Shown piece by piece: positions 7,596 to 64,000 of a stretch of DNA of 64,000 nt; position 1 is the first letter of the stretch; each line of letters opens with the position of its first letter. The DNA lies in the UHGV virus genome UHGV-0370399. One strand, 5' to 3'. The notes beneath the pieces are model-generated. The model saw only the letters and a list, made by a program, of their open reading frames with translations, searched no databases and was not told the DNA's origin. This stretch comes from a virus. The translations under genes and the position numbers were made by a program.

Positions 7596-15611
<8,016 letters not shown>

Positions 15612-21364: not shown

Positions 21365-21621
21365 TTTGTAAATCCTTTCTTAATGAACCAGTTGATAACA
21401 TTCTTCACAGCTTTATTGCTATGGTAGATTAAGTGTGGTGTAGGTTGGTATGAACCATAAGCCCAGAAAGCAATGATTTCATTACATCCTGTACACCTTG
21501 TACTCTCTTCAGCAATATGACCGTTGACTATTTCACTTACCTCGCCTTGTAAGTCTGTACACCCACAATGTGGACATCGGATAGGTGTTCCATCAGACTC
21601 ATAGCAGTGTTCAATTTTCAT
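21361..21621 (-). CDS. small zinc-ribbon protein
   Basis: 86 aa with CPHCGC and CTGCNE Cys pairs; ATGA overlap with DHFR. Confidence 0.4.
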   Translation of the reverse strand: MKIEHCYESDGTPIRCPHCGCTDLQGEVSEIVNGHIAEESTRCTGCNEIIAFWAYGSYQPTPHLIYHSNKAVKNVINWFIKKGFTK

Positions 21622-22137
21622 CTATTTAACCTCAAAAACTGGCTCAAGAACCAATATAAAGTCTACACAGTCATCTTCTTCATCCAGAATACCATCAAAG
21701 TTCTTAGGAACGAAGTCGAAGAGGCTCATCACAAAGCAGTCAGAAGTGACCTTGATAGTTCCTCCCATGTTCTCTACAGTTAACACTGTACGACTTTCTT
21801 TTACCTCCCTCAGAAGATTACCCACAAAGTCATCTAAGAAGTACTTCATCAGTGACTTAAAACCTTTAGGATAATCTGTACCAGAGTATGTTTCAATCTG
21901 AGGCACAAGCTTAACATTTATACTAGTCTTTGTTAAGAACGTGTTAGAGAACATACTATCAGGTAACTTACAAACACTCTTTCCAGTACCTTCATGTTCA
22001 ATCTCAACAAAACCAGCTTCGTCGCCACATGTAACTATTTTAAAAGATGCTTCATTCTCATACTGTGAAGCCATAAACTTTTTAAGCATCTCTTTAAGGA
22101 AATCTGCATGAGCATCTTGTAAGTAGATATCAATCAT
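21622..22137 (-). CDS. hypothetical protein
   Basis: 171 aa ATG-initiated ORF in the leftward operon. Confidence 0.4.
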   Translation of the reverse strand: MIDIYLQDAHADFLKEMLKKFMASQYENEASFKIVTCGDEAGFVEIEHEGTGKSVCKLPDSMFSNTFLTKTSINVKLVPQIETYSGTDYPKGFKSLMKYFLDDFVGNLLREVKESRTVLTVENMGGTIKVTSDCFVMSLFDFVPKNFDGILDEEDDCVDFILVLEPVFEVK

Positions 22138-22511: not shown

Positions 22512-22811
22512 TTAGTCTGCCAACCTTAAATTGAAATTAACACCAAATTTTTCACATACTTCCAACATATACTCAAGGGAAACATTACCAGTGAGGTGGA
22601 TTATGTTGGATACACGAGCCTGAGAGATACCACAAATTTTAGCAACTTGCTCTTGAGAAAGACCTCTGGATTTAATCTCTCTCTTAAAACGATGTGCAAC
22701 GAAGTCTCTCATTTCGTCTACATCCATTGGACAAATATAACTCTCCATTTCAGCCTCTCTATCAGCCTCCCAATCATCTTGTGGGGCATAAGGGTCAAAA
22801 ACCTCATTCAT
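22512..22811 (-). CDS. helix-turn-helix (XRE/Cro-type) DNA-binding protein
   Basis: GLSQEQVAKICGISQARVSNI is a classic HTH; ORF-track start is TTG, moved to ATG at 22811 which overlaps the upstream stop (ATGAATGA). Confidence 0.55.
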   Translation of the reverse strand: MNEVFDPYAPQDDWEADREAEMESYICPMDVDEMRDFVAHRFKREIKSRGLSQEQVAKICGISQARVSNIIHLTGNVSLEYMLEVCEKFGVNFNLRLAD

Positions 22812-26750: not shown

Positions 26751-29450
26751 TCAATGTACTTCCAACCAGCTCTTACCAACCTTACCTGTGCCAGTTACAA
26801 GCGTCTCACTCTTCAAACCTAAATTCTTAGATGCCTGACCATACATCCAGTCAGTTATGGCTTTCACTTCTTGAGTCATACTTTCTGGACATTCCCAACT
26901 GTTTTCATCGTGGTATGCCAGCAAAAGCCTAGCACCAATTGCTGGTTTTCGTCCATTTAATTTTGTCAACCCTTCTTCACATGCTCTTCTACAAGCAAGG
27001 TTAATTGCCTCATTTTGAATCTGAGCCTCCGAACCCATGAGCAAATAATTCAATAACTTATGTGGAGATTTACACCACAACCAAGCTCCAGCAACCTTTA
27101 CAAAACCCCCTTTAGAGATTGCAGCAGTCTTACCAAACACCTCTTCAAGTGCCTTTTTAGTTGCTTTGTAGTCAGCTTCCAAGTCATCTAACAGCTTCTT
27201 AATTTTAGGCAAACGGATAAAGTAAGTCTGTTTAGTCAGCGCACCTTCCTGAGTAGTTGCAGCCTTAATCGTCTTAGCAAACTTCTCATCACCTGCACCG
27301 AACAGCAGTGCATAGATACCATTCTTAGCTTTCTTACGGCCTTTGCTAATCTCATGAAGAAGATTCTCATCCTGAGTAGCTCGACAAGTCAAGATATCCT
27401 GCTCATCATTCAAGCTAAAGTAAATACTGTTCAATGTATGTGCATCAGTCCCTGAATAGACAACGTACAGGTCATTCTCAGAGTCATAGCGAAGGTACTT
27501 ATCAATCTCTGGGTTGAGGTACTCATCAAAATGTTTGCAGTAATAGCGTCCATCTTCTTGACGAATGAACTCAATTTCTTCTTTACCTTGCGTTACCGCT
27601 TTGGTGAAGTCTTTATCACCCATAAAGTTACAAAGAAGAACTAGCTGGGCTGAGTTCATATCTACAGAGACAACGTTAGTACCTTCCTCACAAATCCATA
27701 CTGCCCTCATTGGTTCTCCATAGACAGCAGCACCAGACGGTACGTTTACAATACCATACTGTGTCATACGTCCAGTTGAAGTACCAAACACCATTGCACC
27801 AGCACTAAGGCGACCATCAGGACGAATCTGGTTAAGCCAACCTTTTTCATCATCCTTTGAGTTCTCAATAGTTCTGCGTCGGTGCATCAAAGTATAGTAC
27901 TTAGCAATCTTCTGTCCAAGCTCACCTTCAATCGTATCATAAGATGATTCAGTAAGTTTTGGTGAAGTACGGATTAAGCAAGGTTCAAGCAAATCTGTGT
28001 ATTTCTTCACAGACCAGTTATGCTCGATGTACTGTACACCTTCATGTTCAACATAACTCAAACCACACCGCTCAACCATTTCCTGCCACTTAGGATGCTT
28101 TGTAATCATCTTTTTATTGTCTTTGAAACGACAAACTTTGACAGGGCGACCATCTGAGTCTTTCTTGTAATTCCAGTCATCTGGAACCCAACCAACTGAT
28201 TTCAAGTAGTCTTTAACAACTGCTACCTGAGTCATACGAGAAACTTCAAACTCAATTGGTGTATATGGCGCATCAATCAAACCTGTGTAGCGACTTGACT
28301 CAAGTTCAAAGTGGTTAACAACGTGGCTGTTATAGTACTTCACAGTTTTGACTGTTTTTACTGGTTTCCAGTCTTTGCATTTCTTACCAATCTTTGCGTT
28401 CAACTCATTGCAAATTGCACGAGCATCCTTCATTGCTACAAAACCCTCCTTGTACTCTTCACCAGTTACAGAGTTGGTTGGTGTATAGCAATTTCTCTTT
28501 TCAATGTTAAAAATCTTTGTAGTTGGCTTACCAAATGGTTTGATTTCATAAGTCTGCATCTCACCATTACGCACCTGCTGACGATACTTCGTCTTAGGGT
28601 ACTTGGTAATTCTTTTCAGTCCATCTGCATGACCAAATGCTTCAACATACTCATTCCAAGCTTTTGCAAACTCTTCTCCAGTGACTTTACCTTTGGTCTT
28701 AATAGTTGGAGGTAGATGCGGTTCAACTTCTGAAGCAAGCTCATTAGTCAACTTGTCAAGTTCCTTTACATGGAACTCCATAAGCTCTTTATCAGCTTTC
28801 CAGCCATTGATAGCTTGTTGACTCATCCAGAAAGATGTTTCTTTAGCTCGCATGTAGGTTTCATAAGTGTCTATGCCACACTTCTTAAGCTTGAGATATT
28901 CATTATCAAGTGCCCGTTTAGTTTTGGCGTTAATACGGATATCTTCTACAACACGAGTGAAGATTTCTGCATTCCACACACCCCAATGTTCAATCTCTGG
29001 TTTACGAACACCAACACGAGCACCCCATGCAGCCAAACCATGAGCACCTTTATAGCCCTTTGGAGTTGGTCTATCCATCCACTGAACACGAGACTGGATA
29101 AGAGAATCCTGAAAGAAATTACTCCACGGTTTACACTTTGGATTATCAAAGTTCCATAAATCAGGTGCAATGTGATTGAAAACCCACCAGTCATAACCGA
29201 GACCATTATGGATGCAAAGACGTTTTGCCTTTAACGCAAACTCAATGCCTTCACGTAAGCCACCCTTAATGTACTTGGTATACTTGTGACCGAGGATAGG
29301 CTCATCTGTAAAGACCCATACAGGCGGCTCTTCATCGTCAGATTTATAGTCTGCGAAAGCCATTACGTGCACTTTAGTGAACTCAAGGAGTAAACCATCA
29401 GTTTCTGTATCACCAACTAAATGTAAGTTTTTAAAATCTACGTTTTCCAT
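26751..29450 (-). CDS. family A DNA polymerase with 3'-5' exonuclease domain
   Basis: Exo motif VGDTETDGL near the N-terminus; polymerase motifs DMNSAQL, K..YG and YHDE; start placed at the ATG with SD gagggag (ORF-track start is 10 codons upstream). Confidence 0.9.
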   Translation of the reverse strand: MENVDFKNLHLVGDTETDGLLLEFTKVHVMAFADYKSDDEEPPVWVFTDEPILGHKYTKYIKGGLREGIEFALKAKRLCIHNGLGYDWWVFNHIAPDLWNFDNPKCKPWSNFFQDSLIQSRVQWMDRPTPKGYKGAHGLAAWGARVGVRKPEIEHWGVWNAEIFTRVVEDIRINAKTKRALDNEYLKLKKCGIDTYETYMRAKETSFWMSQQAINGWKADKELMEFHVKELDKLTNELASEVEPHLPPTIKTKGKVTGEEFAKAWNEYVEAFGHADGLKRITKYPKTKYRQQVRNGEMQTYEIKPFGKPTTKIFNIEKRNCYTPTNSVTGEEYKEGFVAMKDARAICNELNAKIGKKCKDWKPVKTVKTVKYYNSHVVNHFELESSRYTGLIDAPYTPIEFEVSRMTQVAVVKDYLKSVGWVPDDWNYKKDSDGRPVKVCRFKDNKKMITKHPKWQEMVERCGLSYVEHEGVQYIEHNWSVKKYTDLLEPCLIRTSPKLTESSYDTIEGELGQKIAKYYTLMHRRRTIENSKDDEKGWLNQIRPDGRLSAGAMVFGTSTGRMTQYGIVNVPSGAAVYGEPMRAVWICEEGTNVVSVDMNSAQLVLLCNFMGDKDFTKAVTQGKEEIEFIRQEDGRYYCKHFDEYLNPEIDKYLRYDSENDLYVVYSGTDAHTLNSIYFSLNDEQDILTCRATQDENLLHEISKGRKKAKNGIYALLFGAGDEKFAKTIKAATTQEGALTKQTYFIRLPKIKKLLDDLEADYKATKKALEEVFGKTAAISKGGFVKVAGAWLWCKSPHKLLNYLLMGSEAQIQNEAINLACRRACEEGLTKLNGRKPAIGARLLLAYHDENSWECPESMTQEVKAITDWMYGQASKNLGLKSETLVTGTGKVGKSWLEVH

Positions 29451-29511
29451 TTTTACTCCCTCTAAAATCATTAACCTCATACATTACTGCAAAAAATTAT
29501 AAAAAGCAAGT

Positions 29512-29540
29512 TGACAATGCACTTGACAAGGTGTTAATCT
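29512..29540 (+). promoter_or_regulatory. sigma70-like promoter in the divergent control region
   Basis: TTGACA, 17 bp spacer, TAATCT; a second TTGACA lies 12 bp downstream. Confidence 0.4.
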
Positions 29541-29645
29541 TTGCGAAGTGGGTTTTTACTTAAAAGGTTACTTAACAGTTTAACTATACAGATACTTTAA
29601 AACTCTTAAAAGATTATTTAATAGCTTTTAAAAAGCTTTAAAGTA

Positions 29646-29664
29646 TAACGTATAGAATACGTTA
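29646..29664. promoter_or_regulatory. perfect 8-3-8 palindrome, operator-like
   Basis: TAACGTAT aga ATACGTTA centred on a TAGAAT -10-like hexamer, 45 bp upstream of the ATG at 29708. Confidence 0.5.
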
Positions 29665-29707
29665 AGATAAAAGATTAAAACTTAATAGTTACTTAAAAGA
29701 GGCTTAC

Positions 29708-30130
29708 ATGCAGAAAATGTTTGTTCACCCAGACATAGCTGACTTTGTTAGAGCTTTGCAGAAGTTGGAAGAACTTGACATTGCTGCTCAACGGGAATAT
29801 GCTCACCATCACAGGAGAATGGTTGATATACAACATGAAATAGAGTTGTCTGAAAACTATGAAGATGACTTAAAATGCTCTGTATTTGAGCATATGAAAG
29901 ATGTTGCTACAGCTAGACGTAAAGCTAAAGACACAGTTGCTTTACTAGATTCTCTTAAAAAGAGGTTGCAAAGTGGTACAGACTTGTGTAATCTAGCGTC
30001 ACTGATTAACGATGTTGAAACTTCTTGGGATAGGCACTATTATCCACGTTCTGAAAAGACACTTGACTTTTCTTCATCAGAAAACTTAAAATGTTCTAGA
30101 AAGAAACTTAACCAACTGAGAGAGAAATAA
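29708..30130 (+). CDS. hypothetical early protein
   Basis: 140 aa ATG-initiated ORF, first gene of the rightward block. Confidence 0.4.
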   Translation: MQKMFVHPDIADFVRALQKLEELDIAAQREYAHHHRRMVDIQHEIELSENYEDDLKCSVFEHMKDVATARRKAKDTVALLDSLKKRLQSGTDLCNLASLINDVETSWDRHYYPRSEKTLDFSSSENLKCSRKKLNQLREK

Positions 30131-30131
30131 T

Positions 30132-30932
30132 ATGAATATCAATGTAGAAAAGATGCTTGAAGAAAAAGGTATTAACGAAGCATTTTTAATCAATGCCGTA
30201 GAAAGCATGGCTATGATTCTTCGTGGGAACAACTACACAGAACAGTTTATGCCTGCAAGCTACAACTTGCCTGAAGACAAGTCTGATAACGGTGCTTTTG
30301 CAGAACAGGTCAACATGATGCTTTGTGACAAAAAACTTGCTTTAGCATCTATTGTTGTAGGTGTCGATGCTCTTGCAGAGTTCATTTTTTATGAGATGCA
30401 GAAAAATGACTATATTGCCATGACCTCTGAAGAAAAAGACTCACTACTGCTCTTAGATAATAATGAGCTAATTGACCTGTTAATTTCGTCAACGAGTGCT
30501 GTTATGGCTGCGCTTGAGAAGCGCATGGAAGAGAAACTTTCACGATATGAAAAACTTGATTGGGGCGTAGAAGAATTAAACCCACGAATCAAAGAGATTA
30601 TACAGCAAACTAAAGAGTCTTTGGAAGAAGCTGTTGAAAATGACTCTGTAGCTGATATAGAACCACTTCAGGTGAAAGTTACACTGATGATTCCAGCTAT
30701 CTCCACGATGATGAAAATCGTTGCACTAATCCAACTTTCACAGATGATGGGTGTGAGTATTGAGTTAATTGAGGAGATGACTGGTGGCGTTAGTATGCAA
30801 GCAATCAATGATGTTTTGGTGAACATTGGTGCTTCAATCATTGAAGAGAAACTACGCATTAACTTCGGTGATGATTTTGTGAAGCAAATCTCAGCTATGG
30901 CTGAAAAAGAGTCTGCTGAGCAACTGCACTAA
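30132..30932 (+). CDS. hypothetical acidic protein
   Basis: 266 aa, coupled to the upstream ORF, followed by a terminator. Confidence 0.4.
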   Translation: MNINVEKMLEEKGINEAFLINAVESMAMILRGNNYTEQFMPASYNLPEDKSDNGAFAEQVNMMLCDKKLALASIVVGVDALAEFIFYEMQKNDYIAMTSEEKDSLLLLDNNELIDLLISSTSAVMAALEKRMEEKLSRYEKLDWGVEELNPRIKEIIQQTKESLEEAVENDSVADIEPLQVKVTLMIPAISTMMKIVALIQLSQMMGVSIELIEEMTGGVSMQAINDVLVNIGASIIEEKLRINFGDDFVKQISAMAEKESAEQLH

Positions 30933-34023: not shown

Positions 34024-34333
34024 GCTCCACATGAAATGCGATGGAGAAGTTGAAATAGAACAACAGTTCCATCAAAGTATGATTACAGTCATCATTACAC
34101 TGCCTCAGCATAATATTGGTTGGCTGTTTATAATGAAAGAAAATGTGTTTGAATATCAAGTATATCGGAGAATATCATGAAACACTCTAAAGCATTTGAA
34201 AAAGTTTTTGGGGATTCCTTAAAAGCCACTGCTGGAAAACCAGCAAAATACTATGAAGAAAAACGTGTAAGAACTGGAAAAACTGCACGTAAAGCAGCTT
34301 CTAAAGATAAGCACAACTTCCAGTAATTAGTAT

Positions 34334-34398: not shown

Positions 34399-35256
34399 AT
34401 GTCTAAAGTTGTTAAAATGAAAGCTCCGGTAGAGAAGTACAACGGTACTGAACGTCAAACTCTGCGTTACCTGCTGAAAGATGTCTGGTTTTATTACCTG
34501 AACACTTCACCACGTCCGGGTAAAGGTAAATCTATTGACAAGAAATTCCCAGGAAAAGATTGTAACTACAGCGTATCAATTCTGGCAGAAGACGGTAACA
34601 AACTCTTTAAAGAGTTTACTAAGTCTAAGAAGAACCCAGAAGGTTGGGATAAAGTTACTACTGAAGCAGTTGATGCAGATGACTTCGAAGAGAAGTTTGG
34701 TTGCAAACCACCTTTTGAAGCAGACACTTACTACATCTTGAAAGTAAGTCGTGCAGCAGCTTATAAAGATGGTGCTGTATGGACAGCTAAACAGTCATTC
34801 CCTGTTATGCTTATTGAAGAAGTAAATGGTAAGCGTGTAGCTGTTAAACAGCCGATGAAGAAAATTAAAGCTCAAGCATCTGATAAACACGAAGATGACA
34901 AGAACTATGATGTAATTCATCCAGATATTGCAGTTGGTAACGGTTCTTTTGGTAGTGTGATTCTTTCTACTCACTTCTACACTTTTGAGAACAATGTTCT
35001 GACAAAACCTATTCAGGAACAGTTTATCATTGATACTCTTGTACCTTACACTGGTGGTAACGGTGCTAATGGTGAACCTGAACTGGATGAAGATGAACTG
35101 GCTATGCTTGGTCTTGATGGTGTTGAAGATAACGGTGAAATCACTGAAGAAGACGCAACAGACCATAAATCTTCGAATGATTCTGATGATGGTGATGATG
35201 AAGACTTGCCAGACCCAGATGACGAAGAAGATGAAGACTTCGATACAGAAGACTAA
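34399..35256 (+). CDS. putative single-stranded DNA-binding protein
   Basis: 285 aa with very acidic C-terminal tail (DEDLPDPDDEEDEDFDTED), as in phage SSBs; located between the helicase and flap endonuclease genes. Confidence 0.5.
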   Translation: MSKVVKMKAPVEKYNGTERQTLRYLLKDVWFYYLNTSPRPGKGKSIDKKFPGKDCNYSVSILAEDGNKLFKEFTKSKKNPEGWDKVTTEAVDADDFEEKFGCKPPFEADTYYILKVSRAAAYKDGAVWTAKQSFPVMLIEEVNGKRVAVKQPMKKIKAQASDKHEDDKNYDVIHPDIAVGNGSFGSVILSTHFYTFENNVLTKPIQEQFIIDTLVPYTGGNGANGEPELDEDELAMLGLDGVEDNGEITEEDATDHKSSNDSDDGDDEDLPDPDDEEDEDFDTED

Positions 35257-62209: not shown

Positions 62210-62238
62210 TTGACAATACCCATTGACATTGGTAACTT
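62210..62238 (+). promoter_or_regulatory. orphan sigma70-like promoter
   Basis: TTGACA-17-TAACTT with a second TTGACA inside the spacer; no ORF before the next module. Confidence 0.45.
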
Positions 62239-62307
62239 TGTTCGAGGGGGTTTATCTAAAAGGGATTCACTTAAAAGATTTCTTTATAGATAAGCTTAAA
62301 AAATTGC

Positions 62308-63311: not shown

Positions 63312-63725
63312 ATGGCAACTATCCGCGCTACTGTTAACGAGTTCGGTTTTTCCTCTCTGGATGTTAAATTTGACATTGCAGGCACTGATAACGCCTTTGA
63401 AATGGTGAAAGGTCTTATCAGTCAGACCATCAAAGACTATAATCCTTCTGATGAGTTCTGGAAAGAAACAAAACAGGAAGTTCTCAAAGAGGGTTATTCT
63501 TATCACTATTGGGGTGAAAAAATTGTCTCTCTGTACTACGACAAAGAAGGCACTATAGCCTCAGATACCTTTATACAGCCCCTCATAGGGGCTTTTTTAC
63601 GTCTATCCAATCCTTATACAATCCCTTTCCCTCACCTTTCCAGAATCTTATCAGACCTTAAAAGCAATAACTCTATAGTCTACTCTATAACCTCTTATCA
63701 AATCAACTTAAATAAAAGCCAATAA
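63312..63725 (+). CDS. cassette gene 15, hypothetical protein (3' end uncertain)
   Basis: 137 aa ORF after module A7; a terminator-like hairpin lies inside it about 130 nt before the stop. Confidence 0.4.
   Translation: MATIRATVNEFGFSSLDVKFDIAGTDNAFEMVKGLISQTIKDYNPSDEFWKETKQEVLKEGYSYHYWGEKIVSLYYDKEGTIASDTFIQPLIGAFLRLSNPYTIPFPHLSRILSDLKSNNSIVYSITSYQINLNKSQ
63577..63598 (+). terminator. terminator-like hairpin embedded in the last cassette ORF
   Basis: AGCCCCT cat AGGGGCT followed by TTTTT. Confidence 0.5.
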
Positions 63726-63943
63726 CCCCAGAAAGGGGATGGCCCATTTAAACGCTCTATAAAGCTCTATAACAGCCTTATCAACCTAACTTAAGGGATT
63801 GCATTAACCTATCTTAAAAAGCTCTTTACAGGGCTTTATAGAGGCTTAAAAGAATCTTATAAGGGTGTAAGCTTATAGGCTGGTTAGTATCTTGTGAATG
63901 GTTAAACAACCCCCTTGCTAGTCACTAAAAAGCATGTTATAGG

Positions 63944-64000
63944 GGCTATAAAGTTACTTCAAAGTTACGTAAAAAAGGCTATAAAGTTACTTCAAAGTTA
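63944..64000. repeat. tandem 33 bp repeat truncated by the window edge
   Basis: ggctataaagttacttcaaagtta at 63944 and 63977 separated by cgtaaaaaa; CTATAAAG-like motifs also at 63764-63784 and 63834-63845. Confidence 0.7.

Follow-up and report, generated by a model that had tools for sequence, protein, structure and literature searches.

The virus genome UHGV-0370399, of which a stretch of 64,000 nt (the window) was analysed, carries a perfect 8-3-8 palindrome, TAACGTAT-AGA-ATACGTTA, at positions 29646-29664, in the intergenic region between a leftward operon that begins with a DNA polymerase gene and a rightward block of genes. Comparison with related phages indicates that the dyad symmetry of this palindrome is under selection and that its conservation goes beyond chance. 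Because this symmetry persisted through paired changes in related phages, the palindrome probably serves a dimeric regulator as a real, if ordinary, binding site, the likeliest candidate being the Cro-like protein of the phage itself. More specifically, it may be an operator bound by the phage's own 99-aa Cro/CI-type helix-turn-helix (HTH) protein, a reading that we favour with slightly less than even confidence. The window is a circularly permuted Felix O1-like genome, in which window position 1 corresponds to Felix O1 position 34288 and the sequence runs over the end of Felix O1 to cover also its first ~12.8 kb (up to ~Felix O1 12,770). The DNA around the palindrome is 97.5-98.5% identical to many Felixounavirus genomes, and the intergenic stretch 29440-29760 is 100% identical to that of Salmonella phage Felix O1 (AF320576).

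The window letters confirmed the 19-mer TAACGTATAGAATACGTTA as a perfect inverted repeat, a feature without strand, with the -10-like hexamer TAGAAT (29653-29658) at its centre. Both points agree with the first-pass annotation of this DNA, although the distance from the palindrome end to the ATG of the first rightward gene at 29708 is 43 nt rather than the 45 bp given there. The palindrome is unique: the annotation had noted no second copy in the window, and it is the sole copy there even when up to 3 mismatches are allowed. The genome-wide search proposed in the annotation detected it once in the complete Felix O1 genome, where the closest other match has 3 mismatches and lies inside coding sequence. 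With up to 4 mismatches allowed across the whole of Felix O1, only chance-level matches in or overlapping annotated open reading frames (ORFs) were found. The half-site centres are 11 bp apart within the 19-bp site, which is the geometry of dimeric HTH operators. A count of perfect palindromes whose arms are 8 nt or longer and whose loops span 0-10 nt gave nine in the 64-kb window; first-order Markov random sequences held 16.3 +/- 4.6, and 81% of them contained at least one 8-3-8 palindrome. The palindrome by itself is not above chance expectation. A literature search returned no description of the 29646-29664 palindrome.

The palindrome was compared across Suspvirus, Mooglevirus and IMG/VR, metagenome and Logan contigs, and ~45 sequences were inspected for variants, compared to ~260 public genomes in all. 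Four sequence forms were found: the form of the window in Felixounavirus, TTACGTAT-AGA-ATACGTAA in a metagenomic lineage (L141/L193), TACGTAT-AGA-ATACGTA in Suspvirus, Sf13-like and L077/L192 sequences, and TATGTAT-AAC-ATACATA in Mooglevirus. Scans of IMG/VR and metagenomes for variants contributed just one new form. A dyad of 7-8 bp was present in all four, and none of the inner seven pairs was broken in any of them. Two pairs showed compensatory changes, from A-T to T-A at 29647/29663 and from C-G to T-A at 29649/29661. In simulations that placed seven random substitutions, the number observed, in the 19-mer, 5e-4 of trials retained 7 or more stem pairs. Together, the compensatory changes and the simulation indicate that the dyad symmetry is under selection, with the caveat that only two pairs covary and that the lineages are few and related. 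Within the intergenic region the palindrome has diverged most, with 65% identity to Mooglevirus compared to 81-86% in the flanking leader, and such fast divergence within a conserved region is expected of a specificity determinant. The relatives that infect Erwinia, Hafnia, Pectobacterium and Yersinia keep the downstream gene and have no palindrome at this place; the arms may have been gained in the Felix/Suspvirus/Mooglevirus clade or may have been lost elsewhere.

The candidate binder is encoded on the minus strand at 22512-22811, in the leftward operon. The assignment of this product as an HTH protein in the first-pass annotation held up well, since it is a genuine HTH_3 protein of the Cro/CI type (Pfam, E = 4.9e-10) and falls into phrog_1373, a transcriptional regulator family in PHROG. 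Its nearest solved relative by sequence is the HTH of the HigA2 antitoxin (PDB 7ewc), a weak match (E = 0.0013). The protein was detected by tblastn in 259 phage records, with two further unrelated matches, and the organism counts of its gene were identical to those of the palindrome-bearing intergenic DNA. The Erwinia, Hafnia, Pectobacterium and Yersinia relatives gave no tblastn match to the protein at E <= 1e-3. Neither the recognition helix, ISQ[A/S]RVSNI, nor the inner GTAT..ATAC core of the site varies across the seven lineages compared. Residue 58 is Lys in 5/5 lineages that have C:G at 29649/29661, and Thr or Ile in 2/2 that have T:A. We found no operator for this HTH protein in the literature.

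The predicted promoters place the palindrome within the rightward leader. A sigma-70-type promoter, P_R1, was predicted on the plus strand at 29511-29540, consisting of TTGACA (29511-29516), a spacer of 18 nt and TGt-TAATCT (29532-29540), with a predicted start at ~29547 and a second TTGACA embedded at 29523-29528. In a position weight matrix (PWM) scan it received the top score of the region (12.1) and was the only strong sigma-70-type promoter there. P_R1 is unchanged across Felixounavirus, Suspvirus and Mooglevirus, its TTGACA is also present in Kolesnikvirus and even in Erwinia phages, and the record of phage ASO1A annotates it as a promoter. On the minus strand, a candidate promoter for the polymerase operon, P_L, was found at 29481-29509, with TTGCTT (29509-29504), a 17-nt spacer and TAATGT (29486-29481). 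Its hexamers are conserved (TTGCTT invariant; TAnnGT), its spacer differs among genera and its PWM score is 5.7. Lying back to back, P_L and P_R1 are the best candidates for the divergent core promoters. The 'twin TTGACA' arrangement of P_R1 occurs three times in Felix O1, at window positions 29511-29540 and 62210-62239 and at Felix O1 21515-21545, that is, before gene 97, in the early region, and before gene 41 at the other divergent junction. In each module, an A-tract and TTGACAAnnnnCTTGACA are followed by TAnnnT, placed 17-18 bp after the first hexamer, and then by GGGTTT..CTTAAAAGG. Of the three, the 2010 Felix O1 genome paper listed just the one before gene 41.

The TAGAAT at the palindrome centre (29653-29658, plus strand) matches the -10 consensus at 5/6 positions and is conserved, and it could be the -10 of a proximal rightward promoter, P_R2, for which a weak -35-like hexamer, TTAAAA, lies at 29628-29633 on the same strand, 19 bp from TAGAAT and 17 bp from TATAGA. 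The earlier description of the centre as -10-like was upheld as far as the conserved TAGAAT, or TA..AT, is concerned, whereas its -35 is weak and the PWM score of P_R2 (5.6) does not rise above the background of such AT-rich DNA. The equivalent position also reads TAGAAT in two phages that have no arms, namely Pectobacterium phage Arno162, in which TTAACA-N18 comes before it and completes a fairly good promoter, and Yersinia phage YenM_P778. A strong TTGACT-N18-TATGAT occurs in Erwinia phages a few bases beyond the TAGAAT position. In Mooglevirus, the change of the loop from AGA to AAC retains the A at 29654, so that the hexamer (TAACAT) is still TA..AT. It is plausible from these comparisons that P_R2 is an ancestral proximal rightward promoter that has a poor -35 in the Felix group.

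These positions bear on what the palindrome could control. It lies at ~+100 to +118 of the ~160-nt rightward leader, 106 bp downstream of the end of P_R1 and ~170 bp from the leftward start, making an action plausible only on rightward expression. The first-pass annotation had proposed a switch of divergent transcription; the divergent cores (29481-29540) lie 110-170 bp to the left of the palindrome, nothing points to an effect on the leftward promoter, and the evidence lends no support to a 'divergent switch'. Divergent promoters were assumed for this region in the Felix O1 genome paper, which found none and described temporal regulation as unknown (PMC3185647). No mapping of transcript starts in Felix O1-type phages was found in the literature.

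Based on this arrangement, we infer the promoter assignments, the binding, the identity of the binder and the direction of repression in the following model. Host sigma-70 polymerase would start early transcription leftward at P_L, towards the polymerase gene, and rightward at P_R1, with a weak extra start at P_R2, for which the TAGAAT of the palindrome centre would serve as the -10. The HTH protein would then build up from the leftward operon, its gene lying ~7 kb from the site, and a dimer would take both 8-bp half-sites. The bound dimer could occlude the proximal -10 and start site and act as a roadblock to polymerases arriving from P_R1, and the rightward operon of replication and nucleotide-metabolism genes would be expressed less as a result.

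The proposal that the palindrome is an operator for a dimeric regulator, first made from the sequence of the window alone, is strengthened by the selected symmetry, the 11-bp half-site spacing and the matching distribution of the HTH gene, whereas the single site and the fit of an RNA hairpin to the covariation weaken it. Several observations weigh against the favoured reading. Because Felixounavirus, Suspvirus and Mooglevirus belong to a single clade, essentially one evolutionary split underlies the co-occurrence with the HTH gene, and the same holds for the Lys58 correlation. By alignment to the 434 repressor, residue 58 presumably lies near the end of helix 2, which we take not to be a usual base-contacting position. 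No auxiliary operators accompany the single site in the window or in the Felix O1 genome. The site misses the sole strong promoter, lying ~100 nt past the predicted P_R1 start, and the promoter that it does overlap, P_R2, is weak by consensus (PWM 5.6, 19-bp spacing). The Watson-Crick covariation fits a hairpin of RNA or single-stranded DNA equally well. The SUSP1 orthologue of the HTH gene, agp035, is the sole 'transcription'-class gene in its part of the genome, and in the portion of the SUSP1 data considered here the CRISPRi-ART screen (PMC11879866) does not list it as needed for fitness; its dispensability in the screen means that any regulation is not essential in the laboratory.

The most serious alternative, although we consider it unlikely, is that the palindrome acts as an RNA hairpin in the ~160-nt P_R1 leader, with a stem of 7-8 bp and a 3-nt loop positioned 43 nt before the start codon, where it might be a stabiliser, a processing signal or the site of a translational or antitermination factor. 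The palindrome is very probably transcribed from the predicted P_R1, and it would be so as nucleotides ~+100 to +118 if P_R1 is the main promoter. RNAalifold keeps the local hairpin in the consensus with 2 covarying pairs and 0 broken, and the isolated hairpin folds better than shuffles (z = -2.7). In addition, the paralogous leader of Felix O1 gene 41 contains a palindrome of other sequence, AGATATC-N6-GATATCT, ~50 nt before the start codon, suggesting by analogy that a stem-loop as such may be a feature of twin-module leaders. The AGATATC-N6-GATATCT palindrome is invariant in Suspvirus and Mooglevirus and gives no covariation to judge by. The gene 41 leader has two perfect palindromes, at Felix O1 21597-21616 and 21625-21643, with the sequences AGATATC-N6-GATATCT and TCTTAAAAG-C-CTTTTAAGA. 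Intrinsic terminators inside the operon, whose mode of read-through is unknown (PMC3185647), are also consistent with an RNA element in the leader. However, the stems are AU-rich and weak, at -5.8, -5.8, -4.9 and -3.5 kcal/mol for the four forms (the last being that of Mooglevirus), and the hairpin is missing from the minimum-energy fold of the 185-nt leader, which itself does not differ significantly from shuffles (z = -1.6). Both double changes go from Watson-Crick to Watson-Crick and a G.U intermediate was seen in no variant, the loop is not conserved save for the one base that matters for the -10 hexamer, and a scan of 29300-29900 against Rfam (E <= 10) returned only noise and no credible match. 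The hairpin also leaves unexplained why the palindrome is missing exactly in those relatives that have no HTH gene.

The same distribution can be turned against the HTH protein as binder, since the evidence for a symmetric DNA target is silent on the identity of the binder and the link to the HTH protein is phyletic only. The genera with the palindrome infect Escherichia, Salmonella, Shigella and Citrobacter and the relatives without it infect Erwinia, Pectobacterium, Yersinia and Hafnia; the palindrome-bearing genera thus share closely related hosts, and a host factor could give the same distribution. We nevertheless assign a small probability to an operator for another protein, be it a host transcription factor or another phage protein. 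The site differs between phages of the same or close hosts, which a co-evolving phage protein explains more easily, gp97, the first downstream product, has no DNA-binding fold in its model, and we know of no enterobacterial regulator with this half-site. A palindrome with no separate function, in which the -10 of a weak promoter is joined by symmetry as a by-product of AT-rich self-complementary ACGT and TATA words, has a similarly slim chance. Palindromes of this size are expected by chance, short AT palindromes abound in the region, and the covariation comes down to two pairs in few independent lineages, but the rarity with which at least 7 pairs survived seven substitutions in the random trials speaks against this explanation, as does the conservation of TAGAAT where the arms are absent, which indicates that the arms are not needed for the hexamer. 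Finally, it is improbable to the same degree that the palindrome is part of a replication origin or DNA-level hub, as an initiator site or cruciform, with the adjacent strong promoter giving transcriptional activation. The primary origin of T7 provides a precedent, its transcriptional activation being supplied by a promoter. The sequence at 29560-29700 is 78-82% A+T, and the palindrome is flanked by direct CTTAAnAG-type repeats on the plus strand (29559-29699), arranged as three tandem pairs (29559/29571, 29605/29617 and 29681/29692) that make up the densest cluster of this motif in the window and in Felix O1. T7-like replication genes border the region on both sides, relatives match it at the DNA level about as closely as they match the coding sequence next to it, or more closely, and the cumulative GC skew minimum (~29-30 kb) falls here. 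The skew minimum is, however, uninformative because it coincides with the switch in gene orientation, and the repeats occur also in relatives that have no palindrome, so the palindrome is not obligatory for their role. The literature searched contained no experimental mapping of the Felix O1 origin.

An operator bound by the HTH protein would resemble the Cro/CI pairs of lambda, 434 and P22, in which a small phage HTH_3 protein is likewise paired with a dyad site of 14-19 bp whose half-sites are about one helical turn apart. As in lambdoid Cro/CI operators, the palindrome covers a -10-like element. In lambdoid immunity specificities, the operator sequence diverges among relatives and the symmetry is kept, and the palindrome behaves in the same way. 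Unlike the lambdoid phages, Felix O1-type phages are virulent and have no lysogeny module, the HTH gene is not adjacent to the site but ~7 kb away (22.5 kb versus 29.65 kb), and binding here is only predicted. The lambdoid operators are also tripartite, whereas the palindrome stands alone and lies downstream of the main promoter. A second comparison is with p4 of phi29, a virulent phage, in which a p4 dimer on inverted repeats in the AT-rich divergent A2c/A2b-A3 region times transcription. Common to both systems are a virulent phage that encodes its own replication genes and an inverted repeat in an AT-rich divergent region. In contrast to the HTH protein, p4 is not of the HTH_3 type, acts at several sites together with the histone-like p6, and both represses and activates, and the single site in the window, lying ~110-170 bp to one side of the predicted promoter cores, lends no support to a two-way switch. 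HigA2-type antitoxins bind palindromic operators as dimers, and the one in 7ewc is similar in having 101 aa, an N-terminal extension and a C-terminal HTH; with a weak match and no toxin partner seen (none was looked for), this likeness indicates a small dimeric HTH protein only. As a covarying stem in an early leader, after a strong promoter and before the first gene, the palindrome is also comparable to lambda nut boxB, T4 translational operators and T7 RNase III sites, but it differs from such phage leader hairpins in having no conserved boxA partner, a variable loop and a stem far too short for RNase III. The arrangement resembles a Cro-type repressor-operator pair, which is familiar in phages, and the conceptual gain is modest. 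What is gained is a map of the intergenic region, with two back-to-back predicted promoters, a leader, one selected dyad and a candidate regulator, in a group of phages that includes classic Salmonella typing phages and is widely used in biocontrol and therapy.

The genes on either side are consistent in function. The leftward operon begins with the family A DNA polymerase gene (26751-29450, minus strand, 899 aa). Its longest ORF starts at ATG 29480, which is probably wrong: the ATG at 29450 has a GAGGGAG Shine-Dalgarno sequence and equals the annotated start in relatives, and the frame 5' of 29450 is not conserved among relatives, with indels there. With the start at 29450, the intergenic region is 257 bp, rather than the ~230 bp given in the first-pass annotation. 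The first rightward gene (29708-30130, plus strand) encodes a 140-aa protein of unassigned function, Felix O1 gp97 (phrog_4039), and is followed by a 266-aa gene, a dNMP kinase gene and a primase/helicase gene. With a family A polymerase to the left and the kinase and primase/helicase to the right, both operons consist of replication and nucleotide-metabolism genes. Structure prediction gave gp97 a helical hairpin fold (pLDDT 72), for which the PDB held no significant match. As an autoregulator, gp97 was rejected: it has no Pfam match, its model has no DNA-binding fold and its homologues occur also in relatives that have no palindrome. The 266-aa gene (30132-30932) is annotated 'minor tail protein' (phrog_4251) and sits within the replication operon. 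Its product has no Pfam match, and the gene is absent from Yersinia phage YenM_P778. Its SUSP1 orthologue, agp048, appears as a fitness gene in the portion of the CRISPRi-ART data considered. The tail annotation looks doubtful.

Three further candidate features of the leader were rejected. An intrinsic terminator at the palindrome does not fit, as 2/8 stem pairs are G-C, no T run follows on either strand and the terminator scan was negative. A lambda-like nut site was considered at the boxA-like CTCTTAAAA (29602-29611), which we take to resemble the lambda sequence; it is not conserved in Suspvirus and Mooglevirus and has the wrong spacing to the hairpin. Long-range RNA structure in the leader was dismissed because only one pair outside the local hairpin covaries, this pair is broken in 2/6 sequences and the leader has no significant stability z-score. 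No leader peptide was detected, there being no ORF of at least 20 aa within 29503-29692.

The CTTAAnAG motif (reverse complement CTGTTAAG and CTTGTTAG variants) clusters in non-coding DNA. Seven copies are found in the leader between genes 96 and 97, four at the gene 40-41 junction (Felix O1 ~21564) and dozens in an ORF-free stretch of ~1.6 kb (window 63590-64000 onward, Felix O1 ~12360-13935). Like repeats fill the homologous leader in the Erwinia, Pectobacterium and Yersinia relatives. The repeats might be bound by a conserved DNA-binding factor, or they might be iterons or an origin. On a broader reading, the palindrome and the HTH protein would be a co-evolving specificity pair (Lys58 with C:G, Thr/Ile58 with T:A) inside a larger control hub of virulent phages, made up of the three twin-TTGACA modules and the CTTAAnAG arrays, that sets the early-to-middle timing of the replication genes and maybe also serves as an origin; we regard this as quite unlikely.

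Other palindromes were noted in passing. The AT-only palindrome AGCTTTTAAAAAGCT (7-1-7; 29624-29638, without strand) lies 8 bp upstream of the main palindrome and is unchanged in most relatives, Sf13-type phages excepted. Elsewhere in the window, two perfect palindromes, AACTCTTGAATCAAGAGTT (1917-1935) and AAACTCTTTAAAGAGTTT (34600-34617), share the arm AACTCTT/AAGAGTT, and a half-copy of these, AAACTCTTAAAAG, is located at 29600-29612.

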